DNA of 54,901 nt, the filler included, from Sluysia triapertura (Eukaryota): assembly GCA_046118255.1 (NCBI GenBank). It is 4 parts of 4 records of this genome, joined end to end, with 100 filler letters (N's around TTAATTAATTAA, not from the genome) between each part and the next. Parts side by side here need not be neighbours in the genome. Positions count along the whole stretch, not along the records: positions 26,547 to 39,758 come from JBJNIA010052887.1; 3 more parts are not named here. One strand, given 5' to 3'. Positions 21,580 through 44,730 of this stretch are shown piece after piece (position 1 is the stretch's first letter; each line of letters opens with the position of its first letter). A model generated the notes under the pieces. That model did not search any database, was not told the origin of the DNA, and was given only the letters and a program-made list of their open reading frames with translations. The position numbers were made by a program, and so were the translations under genes.

Positions 21580-22143
21580 CGACTGGAAAGTGTTTCGAGC
21601 ATTCACATCATCAGTAACCTTTGAATGGTCTCTTAGTTTGGTGTTTGGTTATATAGTTTGATTCTATCACATTATGTTTCGGCATTTAGTCTATTACCAT
21701 TTTGTTGAACGATTATTATCTGAGATTTGGCGTACAAATAAATGTCGTAACATGAAGTAGCACACCAACAATCGCCTAATAAACAAAGCAAATGTGCTAG
21801 GTGGACGAACGAGAACTTTTGTTCAAAATCTATTATATTACTTTATTACTGAAGTTATTGAACCATCTTGGATTTACTTAGAAAACAAATATATCAAGCT
21901 TCTAATATTGATGCAGTTTTCGATGCACATAAGGAATACTTAAATTATTGTTTTCTTAATTGTAATTTAACATCATCCAATCATTTTCGGAGCTCGGAAT
22001 CATTTCTTGGAATGCGTGTGAAATTTTCTGACGAATTCGAAAATAAACTAAGCGCTAGTTTGTTTTTGGCACAAGATCAATTATTTATTACAAAATATGA
22101 AAAGTTCATTGATGAAAAAGATAAAAGATTAATAATTAATTAA
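21580..22143 (+). pseudogene. TUBGCP2: Gamma-tubulin complex component 2 (Spc97/98 family) C-terminal fragment
   Basis: EWSLSLV..Y.IMFRHL.Y.HFVERLL..IW / FVQNLLYYFITEVIEPSW / ASNIDAVFDAHKEYLNYCFLNCNLT; in-frame stops and a frameshift near 21870. Confidence 0.8.
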
Positions 22144-26446: not shown

Positions 26447-26546
26447 NNNNNNNNNNNNNNNNNNNNNNNNNNNNNNNNNNNNNNNNNNNNTTAATTAATT
26501 AANNNNNNNNNNNNNNNNNNNNNNNNNNNNNNNNNNNNNNNNNNNN
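26447..26546. other. Artificial contig linker
   Basis: N44-TTAATTAATTAA-N44. Confidence 0.98.
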
Positions 26547-31753: not shown

Positions 31754-32092
31754 TTGGTCGTGGTGCATTTAGTGTTAAGCATTATTATTAATCTGGATGA
31801 AAATAATTTATCACATACGATAATGTACCTACACATATCACATTCTGCATCTGATATATGTATCAAGAATAATCATAAAATAAAATTTATTCCATCTTAT
31901 TCTCCACAACTTAATCCAATTGAAGATGTTTTTTAAATGAAAAAAATCATAAAATCTGTAAATTGTCAAACAGAAAATCAATTAAAATTGAAAATAATCC
32001 AATCAAGTTTGGATATCACTAGTAAAGATTGTAACTCATGTTTTAAGCATTTGCGCGAGTATTTAATAAGATCAATTGATGAGTCCTTTTAA
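31754..32092 (+). mobile_element. Tc1/IS630-family DDE transposase C-terminal relic
   Basis: IKFIPSYSPQLNPIEDVF motif and downstream helix ...DCNSCFKH; internal stop. Confidence 0.85.
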
Positions 32093-34096: not shown

Positions 34097-34794
34097 GTAA
34101 TCACGAATAGTCATAAAGTAATACAAATTAATAAGACATCCAGCAACCAAATTGGCACAACTTATAAAAATAACTTTAAAAGCTATAGAAAAGTACTTCA
34201 TCAACTGTACATACACTGATAATAAAACAAATAACTGTACACATACATCAGTAAATTTTCATTAAACATAACAAACCCTTGATTTATAAAATCTTATAGT
34301 TTAAGCTAGCAATAAAATCTCTTAAAATTTAATACTTTTAAGCAAGAGAGGATCAAAAGTCTTCTATTGTTACTGCAAGTGTTCTGTCTTAAGAGAAACC
34401 TACTTAGTAAAATTGTTAACGTCTGGAAGAGAGTTAGGTTAGATAGAGACGATTTATGTCACTAGCTGACGACGGTCTAATTAGACTTATAACCAACGTA
34501 AAGAAATTAACTGCAAAAGATAACCTCAGCGAAATCAACTGGTAGCAATGTATAATCGGATTTTAATTTTATCTGTAGGTTAGGACAACCTTTTTACGGT
34601 CTGTCGAATGTTCAAATATTTTAAAGGTGAAATCAGCCTTTTTACGGTCTGATTATAATCAAAAAACGAAGAACTCTCAAATATAAGAGTATATTAATTA
34701 CAACTTACACACACTATATAATAAAGATAAGATTTTAAATTTTAACGTTTCCCTTAGATTGAAATAATTTTAATTCGAAGGTAAGTCAGCCTTT

Positions 34795-35512
34795 TTAAGT
34801 CTTGTTCAATAGACTTAAATTCTTATCTAAATTGTCCGAATAATTTACAGCAGTAGTGGGATATGTGCTTTTTACTCTGTTCAACACAGTATTAGTAGGT
34901 ATGGCTGGTTTTGAGTAGCAGTAATATCTAATTTGTCTAAGATTTGGTACACGTAAATCGCATACTCTATATTCTGGCAAAAATCCGAGTGTATTGTGAA
35001 TTTTTTTATGAAGTAGAATCCAAACCTCGATAAAAGTAAGATTTTGTTCAAATGCAAAAAATAGATAATTATCAGTTTTAGGAAGTATTAGTGCATAATG
35101 CTGTTCTTTATCAAATAATTCATCAAAATCCTTTTTGGGTGGGTTCTTTTTGTTTACTTCATAACCAATTAGTATAGCATTTTCCGTTAACGGGTTTGTT
35201 ATTTTCACAAAGTTATTTCTTTCCCTATATAGTAACATTGGAAATTTTATAGATATTGATAAATGATCAAAAGCATAAGATTTTGTTCTAATTCTATAAT
35301 CGTGTATTGATATAATTTTTGAGTTTTGGTTTGGTTCAAATTCAATTTCTAACTCCAAAGTAATATTAAACAATTGATTACACATCCATTGCACATCATT
35401 ACCCGATGACTGGTATATTTACTAATGTCCAATCCATGTTTACACCAATTAACCAAGCGACAACTAATAGAGATATTGGTGATTTTAGGAATATTACTTT
35501 GTATATTTCCAT
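34795..35512 (-). CDS. Accessory ORF (199 aa open; possible signal peptide from ATG 35512 via frameshift)
   Basis: 600-bp stop-free frame with complex composition; the upstream frame reads MEIYKVIFLKSPISLLVVAWLIGV. Confidence 0.55.
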
Positions 35513-35600
35513 ACATAATTTTTCGACGTGATTTAAATGTAATTCATGGTCTTATTATTATTCATATTGTATGTACGCTAATTATACATGTCATACATAT

Positions 35601-35867
35601 TCATGCTATCATGACTGACTGTAAGCTTGCCACCTGCCATCCTGTTGCGTATTCGTAGATAGGGGGTGGTGGTGGTGGCTCAAGATTATTTCTGTGTGGA
35701 ACAGTATATCGATCATCGTCGTCATTATTCGGAAGTAAGCACGGATATCTACACGGATATCTGTTTGACACAAACATGATAATTACTAGTATAACAATTG
35801 ATAGAGCAATGATGAATAATATTGCAGCTAAAATTAATATTAACAATGATGGATCCGTTCTTAACAT
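35601..35867 (-). CDS. 88-aa single-pass TM protein with PPxY motif
   Basis: About 26-residue hydrophobic stretch, RYPCRYPC, DDDD, EPPPPPPIYEY. Confidence 0.7.
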   Translation of the reverse strand: MLRTDPSLLILILAAILFIIALSIVILVIIMFVSNRYPCRYPCLLPNNDDDDRYTVPHRNNLEPPPPPPIYEYATGWQVASLQSVMIA

Positions 35868-36416
35868 TTCTGATAATGACAGATATTTTCGGTTCCTTTT
35901 AGTGTAAAATGTAGTTGTTCTAATTTCGCTGGTGCTACATATATCTTAGCAATAATAAGTCGCTCTTCGTTAGGCAAGAAATCAGTACATATGGCAATAT
36001 TATTTACCAAATTATTAATATAATATTCCTTTACGTTCCAAGAACAAGTTAAGTCTATTTGGTTTCAGACACATAAATCTCACTTGAATGTCGTTCTGTA
36101 ATATTTTAACTCTTACTTCTGTGTCATAATTATGAAATTCGAGATACTCGGTTTTATAAATTTGTACATCACATTGAACCGTGGTAGTTATTAAGACTAA
36201 CATTAAAGGTATTGGTTTTTTATTAATTGCGACTACGCCTATTTTTCTACTAAAGTCAATTATATGCAATCTGACCCAAATTGCATATATTACTATAAGG
36301 ATTACTGAAATTGGAATTAGTTTATATATTAATGTGATAATGTTGGACGGTATGTCATTTGATGTACAATTGTTTAGATATTTATTCATTGTAATATTCT
36401 GCACCAAATTTTGCAC
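35861..36416 (-). CDS. Accessory membrane or secreted ORF (frameshifted near 36030)
   Basis: Hydrophobic IPISVILIVIYAIWV, second signal-like PLMLVLITTTVQC; continues in another frame KEYYINN...ICHYQKC*. Confidence 0.5.
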
Positions 36417-36561
36417 CTTTCTCGTGTTTCACTTTGTGTCCAATGCAAACAACGCGAAATCTTATTTATGTGATTAATAGTGGGTCTAGATAAATACAAT
36501 ATATATCAAGTTTATGCCGTAAAACATTTTCTTTGAGCTAAATTTTATCTCCCAATATTCA

Positions 36562-37300
36562 TTATAAATATTCGTGACTGATATTTTTGTTCTTTTCCGT
36601 TATTAATTGCAGCATATAAATTCCTATACTTTCATCCTCATCAATATCTATGAATTTGACGAAATTAATCATTACCACTAATAGTATCATCCACCATGAC
36701 CTCTTATGATTATTTACCCTGGTAAATGTAAGCATTACTGTATCGACAGAGCCAATTCTCGATGATGATGATTCCGAAAATTCACTCGTTACTGCTGACA
36801 TTGATGAGTCTGTTGATGACTCATCCCATAAAAAATCAAATAATCGAATTGGTAGAGGAACTGGATTACTAGGTTGGATTTCCGGTGTTGAAATATTAAT
36901 CGGAGCAATATTACTACTACGAGATGGAATAATAACCTGTGGAAGTATTAATTGTGCACCTTGAGGAAATTTTGTAAGACCATACATACAATGTATGACT
37001 GTGTCATCTAATTTATCGAGTGTGTCTAAGCAAATTATTAAATCAAAAGGGGATTCTTTCCAAACACAGATATATTCATTTACTCGTTTGTCTAATATAC
37101 CCAAATGTGCGTGTATTATTCCATCTATATTTATCGGTGTCCGTTGCAGGTTATAAATTATTGTTGGCGGTGGATCCAAAAATACAATTTCCCATGTGGT
37201 CAAAAAATTATAGTGTATTACTGATGTGGTTGCTCCCGTATCAATATTGCTTGGATCCATCTACCATTGAATCGTACGTTTTGGAAAATATGCGTAAGTA
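36562..37300 (-). CDS. Retropepsin-like aspartic protease + Ser-rich linker + hydrophobic segment, downstream of integrase
   Basis: VRFNGRWIQAI[L]/DTGATTSVI (DTGA at 37231-37242); FDLIICLDTL resembles DxILGxDFL; WWMILLVVMINFVKFI. Confidence 0.75.
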
Positions 37301-37329
37301 TTCCAGTTGATACATGGTACATCATTACT

Positions 37330-39282
37330 ACTTGCTTATGAACCAGCGACTGAACTGAAGATGGTGGTTTATCTCGATCTTTTGTTTTTGGTTTAACCTT
37401 TAATTTAGACTTTTTAACAGTTCTATTTCTTAACTGGTATTCATCACTTGGTACTATCTTACATCTGTTGACATGTACTATAAAAGTTTCGGAATCTAGT
37501 TTGGTTGTATCTTTAACAAATAAATTGGTATCGGTGATTTTTATTATTTCATGTGGTCCCTTAAATGGCTTATGTAACTTTGGTGATTGTCCCGTTTGGT
37601 TAATGGATATTCGATGAGTATCTTATCACCAATCTGAAAATTGTGCTCTTTAGCTTTCTTGTCGTATGCATCCTTATGTGCTTCTTGTGAAAATTTTATT
37701 TGTAAACCAGCACGTTTCCAAGCATCTTGTAGTCTTTCGTGCATTATTCTTACGTATTCAGGCGTTTCCATATATTGAGATGTAGGTAGTATCCATTCTA
37801 AGTCCACTGGCATATTTGAGTGACGTCTGTACATTAAATAAAATGGAGTAAAATTTATTGCTTGATGCACCGATGCGAATAAACACGGTGAAATATATAA
37901 GTCCCAGTCTGTTTGCATATCATTTACGTTTGATTGAAGCATATTTATCAATGTTCGATTAAACCGTTCAACTAGTCCATCCGTCTGCGAATGATAAGGT
38001 GATGTGTAAATTCTTAAAATGTCGAATATTTTTGCCACTGATTTAATTACATCACTAGTAAAATTTGTACCCTGATCTGTAAGTAACTTTCGTGGCGTAC
38101 CATATCTGTATATTATTTTTTCTACAAGTATCTGTGAGACAGTTTCTTCCCTTTGATTCTCATTGGGTACGCCTCAGGCCATTTAGTTAAGTAGTCGGCA
38201 AATACAATAATATATTATTTCCATTAAAAGTTTCTGGTAGTGGTCCCACCATATCCATTGCTGTAAAGTCCATGGGTGATAATGAAACTGGCATTGGTTT
38301 AAGTGGTACTTTTGTCCGAGTTCCAGTATTTTTCCTTCTACAACAGAATGAACTATCTTTACACCATTTTCTAATGTCTTCTTCCGTGCTTTCCCAATAA
38401 TATTTATCTTTTATGCGTGATAATGTTTTTCTTAAAGACAGATATCCACCTAATTGACCATCATGAAATTGTATTAGAATTGGTGTTATCAGTGATTTAG
38501 GGACTATGGTTTTCCAGTCTTCTTTTGAATCTCTAAATCGAAGAATTCCGTCCGTAATGGCTAATCTCTTTGCCTGATTTTCGATTAGTGTCCCTTTCGC
38601 TAATGAATCAATAATACATGAAATTTATTCATCTTCCCTTAGATGTTTGATAATTTCCTTAGGGTTTTGCAACTTGCTTGATATTGCCATAATTTTTATT
38701 AAATTAATATTTGCTTTATCATTTACGTTTGTCGGTCGTGACATACAGTCAGCGCCATTGCTTTGTGAACCTGGTTTGTAGATAACTTTTAAGTCAAATT
38801 CAGATAGTTTGTTGAACCATCTATTTAGTCTGCTCACTTCATCTCTATGGTTGTACAAGTAGGTTAGTGGTTTGTGACCTGTATATAAATAAACTTTTTG
38901 CCCTAACAGATAATGTCTAAATAACTTGCATGCGTATACTCTTGCTAAACACTCCTCTTCTATTGCAGAATAGTTCATTTCAGTTTTATTCAGTCTTCGA
39001 CTAGCATATGCGATTACCGCTTCTAAATTGTTCATATCCTTTTGTCCCAAAATTGCTCCTATGGCATAGTTAGTGGCATCTGTGGTGATTATAAATGGTT
39101 TATTGACATCTGGAAATATTAATATTGGTGTCGTGGTTAGCCGTTTTTTTTAATTTTTTAAAGGCTTTTGTTTGTTCTTCTGTCCATCTAAATTCCACAT
39201 CTTTCTTTGTTAATTTTCTGAGGGGCTGGGCTATCTTAGCAAAATTTTTAACAAAACTTCTATAATAATTAGCTAAGACTAA
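37330..39282 (-). pseudogene. pol: pol: RT connection, RNase H, integrase with GPY/F module
   Basis: LANYYRSFVKNFAKIAQPL; TDATNYAIGAILGQ; YSAIEEECLA; MDMVGPLP; LLTDQGTNFTS; PYHSQTDGLVERFNRTL; KLHKPFKGPHEI; several frameshifts. Confidence 0.95.
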
Positions 39283-39541
39283 AATTTTTATGTAGTAATC
39301 ATAAAATAATAATAAAATGGTACTAAAATTTAAAATAACATTTATAAAATAATTTATATTTCTAATTTAGTAAAATGAGCTAATTTATCGACTAATTATT
39401 TACAAATATTGATATATACAAAAATATTAAATTAATTATTTACAAATATTAATTAAAATGTTGTTTTTAAATACAACTTAAACATTAAATCATTACATTA
39501 AATTATTTTTAATCATTAAATTTATTACATTTATTATTTAC

Positions 39542-39600
<59 letters not shown>
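39542..39600. repeat. (AAT)n microsatellite
   Basis: Direct. Confidence 0.95.
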
Positions 39601-39601
<1 letters not shown>

Positions 39602-39758
39602 TGTTAGGTCTTCCATCACGACACTTTAAAATATCATAAAATGTTTTAAAATTATTTATGTGTCAAAAAACACATAAAAAGTATTAATTTTCCAAAAAAG
39701 AAATTATTTTTTCTAAAAAAGAAAATAAAATTTCTAAAATAGAAAATAAGCTTCTAAA

Positions 39759-39858
39759 NNNNNNNNNNNNNNNNNNNNNNNNNNNNNNNNNNNNNNNNNN
39801 NNTTAATTAATTAANNNNNNNNNNNNNNNNNNNNNNNNNNNNNNNNNNNNNNNNNNNN
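39759..39858. other. Artificial contig linker
   Basis: N44-TTAATTAATTAA-N44. Confidence 0.98.
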
Positions 39859-40011
39859 TATTTCGAATTTTATTCGAGTTTCGAATAATCGTTCTACATT
39901 TTTTCATGAACAATTTTTTATCGATCGCTTTTTACTTTCTTATAATTTATAAGTCTAAAACGTTATATTAATAAAACCATGAATAATTAATTAAAATTTT
40001 GATTGAAATAG

Positions 40012-40204
40012 AAATTTAATGCTGCTGTCGAAGGCAGAAGAAGATGGCTTGGAATGCTTTAAATTTAATTTTACATTGACTCAGAATTCATTTGGCAAAC
40101 TTCACAAATACGAAATAATCCGAGGTGGACAAAACATTCCTGTTACTATGGAGAATAAAGGAGAATATATTTACGGTGTCGTAGAACTCATTCTTTATAA
40201 ACAG
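40012..40204 (+). CDS. Isolated HECT E3 ubiquitin-ligase exon
   Basis: FTLTQNSFGKLHKYEIIRGGQNIPVTMENKGEYI; flanked by ...aaatag| and |gtaact. Other exons not seen. Confidence 0.7.
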
Positions 40205-40259
40205 GTAACTGTAAGATGATTTTATAATTTAATATAAATATATTTTATAATGGAAAATA

Positions 40260-44207: not shown

Positions 44208-44450
44208 TCAAAATTCAATTATTAACTTTCCATCATAAATTGCATCTACTTTTCTGATCATTTCTTCCACTTCAGTAACTGATCGATTTTGTAACATTTT
44301 TATTGCTGAAGTTGATTCGTGGATCTCAATATATCGACTTTTATCTTTATCAAACCTTTTAAATGCTTTTCGTAGTTCTTCATATTCTTCATGAGAATTA
44401 TAAAATTCTTTTCGCCCTTGTTTGTTCGATTTCGTTGACTTTTTGAACAT
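44208..44450 (-). CDS. Calmodulin-like EF-hand pair (80 aa), probably degenerate
   Basis: EELRKAFKRFDKDKSRYIEIHE and EVEEMIRKVDAIYDGKLIIEF. Confidence 0.75.
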   Translation of the reverse strand: MFKKSTKSNKQGRKEFYNSHEEYEELRKAFKRFDKDKSRYIEIHESTSAIKMLQNRSVTEVEEMIRKVDAIYDGKLIIEF

Positions 44451-44730
44451 TTTATAATACTAAATGGCAGTAAAATATGAAAACAAACGTGTATTTTAGT
44501 TTCTTTTAAATTTGTTCAAATATTAACTATGGATAATATTATGATTAACTAAAATGACTAAAAATACCTTTTTATAAAATCTAAAATTTCTCTATATTTT
44601 TCTTAACACCTTTTAGCACAAAAGCTGTCTGAATTTATTGAGTAATTATCTATATTGAATTTTTATTTGTCAGCTATTTTTGTTCACTTTATTTTTAACA
44701 TTTATATATTGAAAAGAACCTCAGGCAATG

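Follow-up and report, generated by a model that had tools for sequence, protein, structure and literature searches.

A small membrane-spanning frame behind a decayed Ty3/gypsy pol of Sluysia triapertura is probably the detached helix and tail of a longer membrane protein

The 88-aa minus-strand frame (P0001) situated behind a decayed pol in the analysed window, i.e. the whole stretch of 54,901 nucleotides from Sluysia triapertura, raises the question of whether it encodes a small protein of its own or a piece of a larger one. A preliminary description had read it as a microprotein of an env-less retroelement, acting as a budding adaptor, a ubiquitin-ligase hijacker or a small fusogen. The features on which this reading was built were all present in the minus-strand translation: a near-absent ectodomain, a long transmembrane segment, RYPCRYPC, an acidic patch and PPPPPPIYEY. 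The frame begins with MLRTDP, and about 7 residues lie ahead of a hydrophobic segment some 26 residues long (8-33), whose Kyte-Doolittle maximum is 3.53 over a 19-residue span. The juxtamembrane cysteines correspond to Cys39 and Cys43, the acidic run DDDD to residues 49-52, and the frame ends with VMIA. Among the 36 window ORFs of at least 60 aa, P0001 alone reached a hydropathy of at least 3, and PPxY was present in one of the 36. The coordinates of the features are presented in Table 1.

To estimate what arises by chance, the 2931-nt 3' cassette was shuffled 2000 times with its dinucleotide composition kept. An ORF of at least 88 aa appeared in 242 shuffles, an ORF of at least 60 aa with a P0001-like membrane helix in one, and the same with PPxY in none. 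A membrane-spanning ORF with PPxY is far above chance expectation, and the view that the locus holds real retroelement coding sequence for a membrane helix with a tail was upheld. It had also been pointed out that the frame is intact although pol is decayed. The frame is indeed intact, but this is unremarkable: at the rate of breaks in pol (5-7 per 2060 nt) a stretch of 267 nt stays unbroken with a probability of 0.40-0.52, and the intactness therefore carries little weight. None of 6 candidates of 48-154 aa was a homologue of P0001, none of 185 longer candidates contained it (weak evidence), and viral contigs gave no match (0 of 32). The Pfam scan resulted in ECSCR and WSS_VP only, both far under the cut-off. 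The best Atlas match, to small chordate membrane proteins, was 0.87, which is below 0.9 and serves as a lead only.

Table 1. Features of the window element and of the 88-aa frame.
Feature	Position	Strand	Basis or remark
P0001, 88-aa ATG-to-stop frame: membrane helix and cytoplasmic tail	35601..35867	minus	translation
Membrane-spanning helix, residues ~8-33 of P0001	35769..35846	minus	hydropathy maximum 3.53
RYPCRYPC, two juxtamembrane Cys (putative palmitoylation candidates), residues 36-43	35739..35762	minus	translation
PPPPPPIYEY, residues 64-73; PPxY = residues 68-71	35649..35678	minus	translation
67-codon stop-free stretch without Met, two Cys, candidate second ectodomain half	35861..36064	minus	different frame from P0001
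P0003, 124-aa frame: hydrophobic segment, basic loop, second signal-like segment, beta-rich start	36015..36389	minus	
P0004, 232-aa frame: second retropepsin-like domain (DTGA), Ser-rich linker, signal-like hydrophobic segment	36562..37260	minus	
Decayed Ty3/gypsy pol: RT end, RNase H, H2C2 zinc finger, integrase core, C-terminal GPY/F-like part	37218..39282	minus	
P0002, 196-aa downstream ORF	34795..35385	minus	no relative found
3' non-coding end of the element	34212..34794	minus	depth rise

The pol in front of the frame has the Ty3/gypsy order RT-RNase H-integrase, with Pfam matches to RT_RNaseH (1e-34), Integrase_H2C2 (2e-14) and rve (3e-5), and its frames were confirmed by tblastn. It is decayed, as had been stated earlier: the three-frame map contained six breaks, five frame changes and one stop, between 39305 and 37245. 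The element is truncated at its 5' side near 39300, and gag, env and protease are therefore out of view. P0004, severed from pol near 37245, resembled the protease of P0014 (blastp E 1e-6); the search against solved structures gave one chance match (E 3.3). P0003, which lies in the same reading frame as P0001, had no Pfam match and no homologue among 7 candidates. P0002 matched nothing among 1.84 billion representatives and had no Pfam match; its structure model (pLDDT 36) was unusable. P0002 is repeated along with the element. The summed contig depth, which is not a copy number, was about 1,700-89,000 over 34212-39750 compared with about 45 on the unique flank, and the repetition clearly takes in the 3' cassette along with pol. 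The repeat boundary was located at about 34.2-34.3 kb, where the depth climbs from about 45 to more than 3000 and the unique flank contig stops at 34329. AATAAA was not found at 34100-35620. Two short overlapping open stretches of 64 and 50 codons, one of them hydrophobic, were noticed on the minus strand at 35349-35551, with no phmmer match within the clade described below.

The search with the window integrase gave 436 proteins, of which 11 stood apart at 53-62% identity and 232-265 bits, the next match scoring 151. The alignment of these 11 clade proteins was used to fetch further loci. In the integrase tree (73 rows, 195 columns, midpoint root) the 24 pre-grouped rows including the window formed one side of a branch with a support of 99/92, and the window integrase belonged to a 9-row set with P0125, L001 and L002 (support 98/90). 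The window integrase was not found in viral contigs (0 of 11), where the alignment search gave distant elements only (23-30%). The search of genome contigs added one clade member, L080. This contig of 4655 nt was binned with a bacterial genome, Turicibacter sp., and is probably a eukaryotic contig in the bin. No LTR pair was found in L001, L002, L004, L005 and L009.

All four long polyproteins scanned (L001, L002, L009 and P0125; 3181-3735 aa) contained the Monjiviricetes-type fusion glycoprotein PF24664, with E values of 1e-83 to 5e-94, in frame between the gag region and the protease. The lineage is thus not env-less, and the description of the window element as env-less found no support, the window holding its 3' part only. 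Such a GAG-ENV-POL layout was described for the planarian Burro elements, as far as the accessible part of the text covers (PMC6431247), and gB-type errantiviruses with the same layout are listed from Nematoda, Bryozoa and Platyhelminthes in the accessible part of a second text (PMC13524379). With Burro/GYPSM1 and these errantiviruses the relatives share the single polyprotein and the mononegavirus-like glycoprotein between gag and protease. Ankyrin repeats, present in some clade polyproteins and in two members behind the integrase, are likewise shared with the Burro/GYPSM1 giants, as are the downstream accessory ORFs. Large accessory ORFs 3' of the polyprotein were observed in L001 (11176-13653), L003 (2798-6448), L004 (6867-9923) and L005 (7283-11520); the accessory ORFs of the clade loci encode a DEDD exonuclease (RNase_T), a RING finger protein and proteins of unknown kind. 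The clade is called Burro-like here by analogy of layout, the tree containing no Burro sequence.

In 7 of the 11 clade proteins and 9 of the 13 loci, Pol runs in frame into a membrane helix and a tail, and the same was found for L001, which the scripted helix count had missed together with L010 and L053. P0005, P0007, P0008 and P0013/L080 have no terminal helix, that of L080 being in a split-off ORF just downstream. The module is laid out as a type I membrane protein: a signal-like segment, between one and three repeats, each about 100 aa long and of the fibronectin type III (FN3) kind, the membrane helix and the tail. A second aspartic protease was detected behind the integrase in P0005, P0007, P0010, P0011, L004 and L006, P0005 apparently having two. 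The AlphaFold model of the L001 repeat pair (8 sequences, pLDDT 66) was all-beta and gave 202 FN3 matches at E of 0.001 or lower in Foldseek; the VIA Z values reached 10.1 across 80-90 residues, chiefly in the second domain. The Atlas features of P0012 also suggested FN3 (0.86-0.90, a lead). The post-integrase repeats of the relatives are predicted to adopt the FN3 fold. A further FN3-like repeat was seen upstream of the protease in P0014 (1-260), where it has its own helix, and in L002 (4799-5152), so the module can also precede Pol.

A class I PDZ-binding motif is S/T-x-V/L/I at the C-terminus. It ended 13 of the 17 helix-plus-tail rows compared with none of 109 other Pols. The 17 rows include the close pairs P0006/P0125, L003/L017 and P0012/P0015 and so do not count as independent; duplicates (L005, P0126, P0129), truncated rows and those lacking a terminal helix were excluded from the count. 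PPxY, in contrast, was present in one of the 17 post-integrase tails, that of L006, and in the 22 polyprotein rows it occurred four times: behind the env helix of L001 and of P0125, in the L006 tail and inside the L006 Pol. In L006, which also has the second protease, PPxY followed by Cys and Tyr lies 15 residues behind the terminal helix. Conservation of PPxY in the family was not found, the conserved tail signal being the C-terminal PDZ-binding motif. As a ligand of WW domains PPxY remains plausible; it recurs behind helices in three relatives. In 16 rows the part from the helix to the end measured 47-149 aa, and in 4 of these a Met immediately precedes the helix. Among 35 sense ORFs of at least 40 aa downstream of Pol, one had a helix, and that was the split-off piece of L080.

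These data suggest that P0001 is probably what frame changes have broken off a longer type I membrane protein, namely its C-terminal helix and tail, the protein being encoded behind the integrase. The strand and place of P0001 are those of the post-integrase helix and tail of the family. A piece of 88 aa fits such a break, as the relatives have 47-149 aa from helix to end and a Met before the helix in a quarter of the rows, and L080 exemplifies a split-off helix piece. The frame of P0001 stays open for 26 codons 5' of its ATG, which is therefore a candidate start at most, and the Met is probably internal. The microprotein claim was accordingly not sustained: in the relatives the helix and tail end a long protein, and in the sister copies the frame seems to run on past the ATG in the 5' direction.

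The 124-aa frame and the P0001 ATG are separated by 148 nt, which the open stretch without Met covers (Table 1). The chance of the spacer being open in a free frame was p 0.035. Because it contains no Met, this stretch needs an upstream start. Sister-copy data were obtained from contigs of one public run, aligned over the window. Four contigs depart from the register of the window at 35891, which is one of the six loose ends listed, and after a register shift they agreed with the window at 25 of 29 letters by hand comparison. The same hand comparison joins the Met-less stretch of these contigs to the 88-aa frame in a continuous reading frame. One of the four differences, at position 35905, was independently listed as a copy difference. 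Three of the four were silent in the upstream frame and none in the 88-aa frame. However, silent changes failed as a frame marker in pol, where only 1 of 17 listed copy differences was silent, and the argument at 35891 is weakened by this. A gap at 35891 does not appear in the 12 of 118 gap rows listed, nor do three of the five frame breaks of pol. At 35891 the support from copies consists of the short ends of four contigs, all of them from the same run and compared manually. The window copy is broken near 35891 and, as we infer, near 36064.

Several observations stand against the remnant reading. Two opposite breaks within about 170 nt are required, and the copies support one. By sequence comparison the putative ectodomain of the window has no significant FN3 match: with the breaks read through as X it scored 3.0 bits against the FN3 profile, a value matched by 90 of 1000 shuffles, whereas left-out true FN3 repeats scored 6.5-46.5 bits, all above it. 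In the pairwise comparison with FN3 repeats 35 of 500 shuffles were as good, and hhalign gave 11.5 against a shuffle maximum of 14.1. The two Cys of the ectodomain align with the FN3 register by eye, but the scores were not above the shuffles. The individual window pieces were not picked out, among 1090, by FN3 profiles made from 6 and 27 repeats. The end VMIA, judged by its sequence, has no PDZ motif, although 4 of the 17 relatives have none either. Finally, 4 of the 11 clade proteins have no terminal helix, and no longer P0001-bearing protein was found. As a separate observation, the stretch 36378-36509 was likened by eye to the Cys-rich ectodomain of L006, a candidate rejected for lack of phmmer support.

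An unlikely alternative is that P0001 is a stand-alone accessory protein of the sub-lineage, a palmitoylated membrane adaptor recruiting a NEDD4-type ligase. NDFIP or TMEPAI-type proteins are membrane adaptors that recruit such ligases. P0001 would then be one of several small 3' ORFs (124, 88 and 196 aa), made via re-initiation or from spliced RNA. The stop of the upstream frame overlaps the first P0001 codons, and this is a layout known from coupled termination-reinitiation. The lack of a significant FN3 match and of a PDZ end in the window would agree with such a protein, genuine downstream ORFs exist in the clade loci, and both copy differences that fall within the ORF among the 40 of 1263 rows listed sit in residues 1-7, the helix, Cys and PPxY having none among them. 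The Burro accessory ORFs can also be separate or lie within the polyprotein (PMC6431247). On the other side are the register shift of the sister copies at 35891, the Met-less open frame directly upstream, the single helix among the 35 downstream ORFs of relatives and the lack of a homologue among the 6 candidates of similar length. The ubiquitin-ligase idea survives in part: as an inferred tail signal it may stand, as a free adaptor it does not.

Two further readings are far less probable. The fusogen proposal, i.e. a FAST/sORF2-like cell-cell fusogen substituting for env, is very improbable. The sORF2/FAST group is characterized, in the accessible part of the text, by 60-210 aa, one helix, the motif MGxxxS/T (absent in some members), a polybasic patch and an ectodomain that bears an amphipathic motif and comprises 10-50 residues, in the typical case about 30 (10.1101/2025.03.14.642691). 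P0001 resembles the sORF2 of the MDG1 group and FAST proteins as a short single-helix sense frame; according to the accessible passages, its 88 aa fall within the range of 63-107 of sORF2-like proteins, some of which lie downstream of pol, and the membrane-proximal Cys pair and proline run recur in some FAST proteins (PMC12945298). In contrast, P0001 has no MGxxxS/T motif, has about 7 outside residues instead of about 30, and carries 2 Lys/Arg in the 15 post-helix residues instead of at least 3, with an acidic patch in place of the polybasic one. It is probably not a separate ORF, and all four long polyproteins scanned show that the lineage is already equipped with a fusion glycoprotein. Membership was rejected, as size, single helix and Cys pair agree with the group while the myristoylation motif, ectodomain length and polybasic patch do not. 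About as remote is the possibility that the frame arose by chance in AT-rich DNA without coding function, or that it is a piece of host sequence picked up by the element and not related to its proteins. This reading would agree with the 88-aa ORFs in 242 of 2000 shuffles, the empty homologue searches and the Atlas matches below 0.9 to small chordate membrane proteins only. However, helix plus PPxY appeared in none of the 2000 shuffles, strand and position match the helix and tail of the family, and the P0001 stretch is repeated with the element.

In the favoured reading, a giant GAG-ENV-POL (Burro-like) gypsy element would encode a membrane protein behind its integrase, as part of the single polyprotein that is seen in the relatives. 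The post-integrase part would be freed by the element protease or the second protease, and an internal signal segment, suggested by hydropathy, would route it to the secretory pathway. There, two or three FN3 domains, as predicted for L001, may be displayed on a stalk, with the tail carrying sorting signals: a motif of the class I PDZ ligand type, which would bind PDZ domains, in most members, and PPxY with the Cys pair in the window, where it may attract a NEDD4-type ligase, with turnover or sorting by ESCRT as the outcome. In the dead copy, frame breaks would have detached the helix and tail, so that an internal Met mimics the start of a microprotein; the window copy is inactive. If P0001 is such a remnant, the job of an attachment or adhesion partner, placing particles and the gB-type fusogen at cell-cell contacts while the tail would set location and turnover, is the likeliest single role given that a class III fusogen is already present in the lineage and that FN3 repeats serve in binding, although this assignment is held with somewhat less than even confidence. 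A decoy or signalling-receptor mimic comes next.

PPxY late domains occur in retroviral Gag and matrix proteins. P0001 has a canonical PPxY in a similar proline-rich context; unlike theirs, its motif is in the tail of a membrane protein and not in Gag, and the relatives have it in one of 17 tails and in two env tails. The cellular FN3 type I proteins (FNDC5, cytokine receptors, LAR, NCAM) have FN3 repeats, a helix and a short tail in common with the module of the relatives, but the identity was 7-20% with no single source, and the module is fused to Pol. For the LTR elements of bdelloid rotifers, extra ORF3s and small membrane ORFs behind pol are described in the accessible part of the report, one ORF3 being regarded there as what may be left of a longer env-like ORF (PMC5408684). 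Membrane ORFs behind pol and the DEDD exonuclease cargo are thus alike; the bdelloid ORF3s are separate ORFs, and that part of the report mentions no FN3 (PMC5408684). The accessible parts of the Burro and errantivirus texts name no fibronectin repeats, which the module of the relatives contains, and their descriptions include no post-integrase membrane protein, second protease or PDZ motif (PMC6431247, PMC13524379).

The GAG-ENV-POL giants are already known, whereas an FN3-helix-PDZ end could not be found in print. The literature search gave neither this module nor a second protease behind the integrase, although the Burro paper, the Repbase entry GYPSM1 or supplements may already annotate them, and nothing on PPxY/Nedd4 or a PDZ-binding motif in gypsy retrotransposons. 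What is striking belongs to the relatives, and a link between this trait and the window locus is probable. It is tentatively proposed, as an idea that we regard as rather doubtful, that the giant gypsy clade encodes, at the end of the single polyprotein, a second surface protein resembling a cell-adhesion or cytokine receptor, an attachment partner steering the gB-type fusogen and particles to cell junctions in a two-component entry, with the PDZ signal of the tail replaced by PPxY in the sub-lineage of the window. If functional, the module would give a retrotransposon a further surface protein that does not itself fuse membranes, and would offer a handle on how such elements choose their target cells. 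Small FAST-like ORFs in decayed copies can be remnants of a helix and tail.

Other parts of the window were also recorded. The window is AT-rich, with a GC content of 0.18-0.39 per kb. The 100-base N gaps at 11829-11928, 26447-26546 and 39759-39858, each with a central 12-base all-frame stop linker, are artefacts and not repeats. A HECT ubiquitin-ligase fragment (40007-40219, plus strand, E 6e-11) lies about 4 kb from the PPxY frame, past an N gap, and its proximity is taken as coincidence. An EF-hand (calmodulin-like) frame was located at 44208-44459 on the minus strand, a gamma-tubulin complex fragment at 21862-22143 and a decayed DDE_3 transposase at 31754-32092, both on the plus strand. 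Gag-like fragments of a second similar element were detected at 9059-11434 on the plus strand, where tblastn matched the N-terminal region of P0125 at E 2e-7 and 3e-5; they also match L001, and long acidic frames and an N gap come next.
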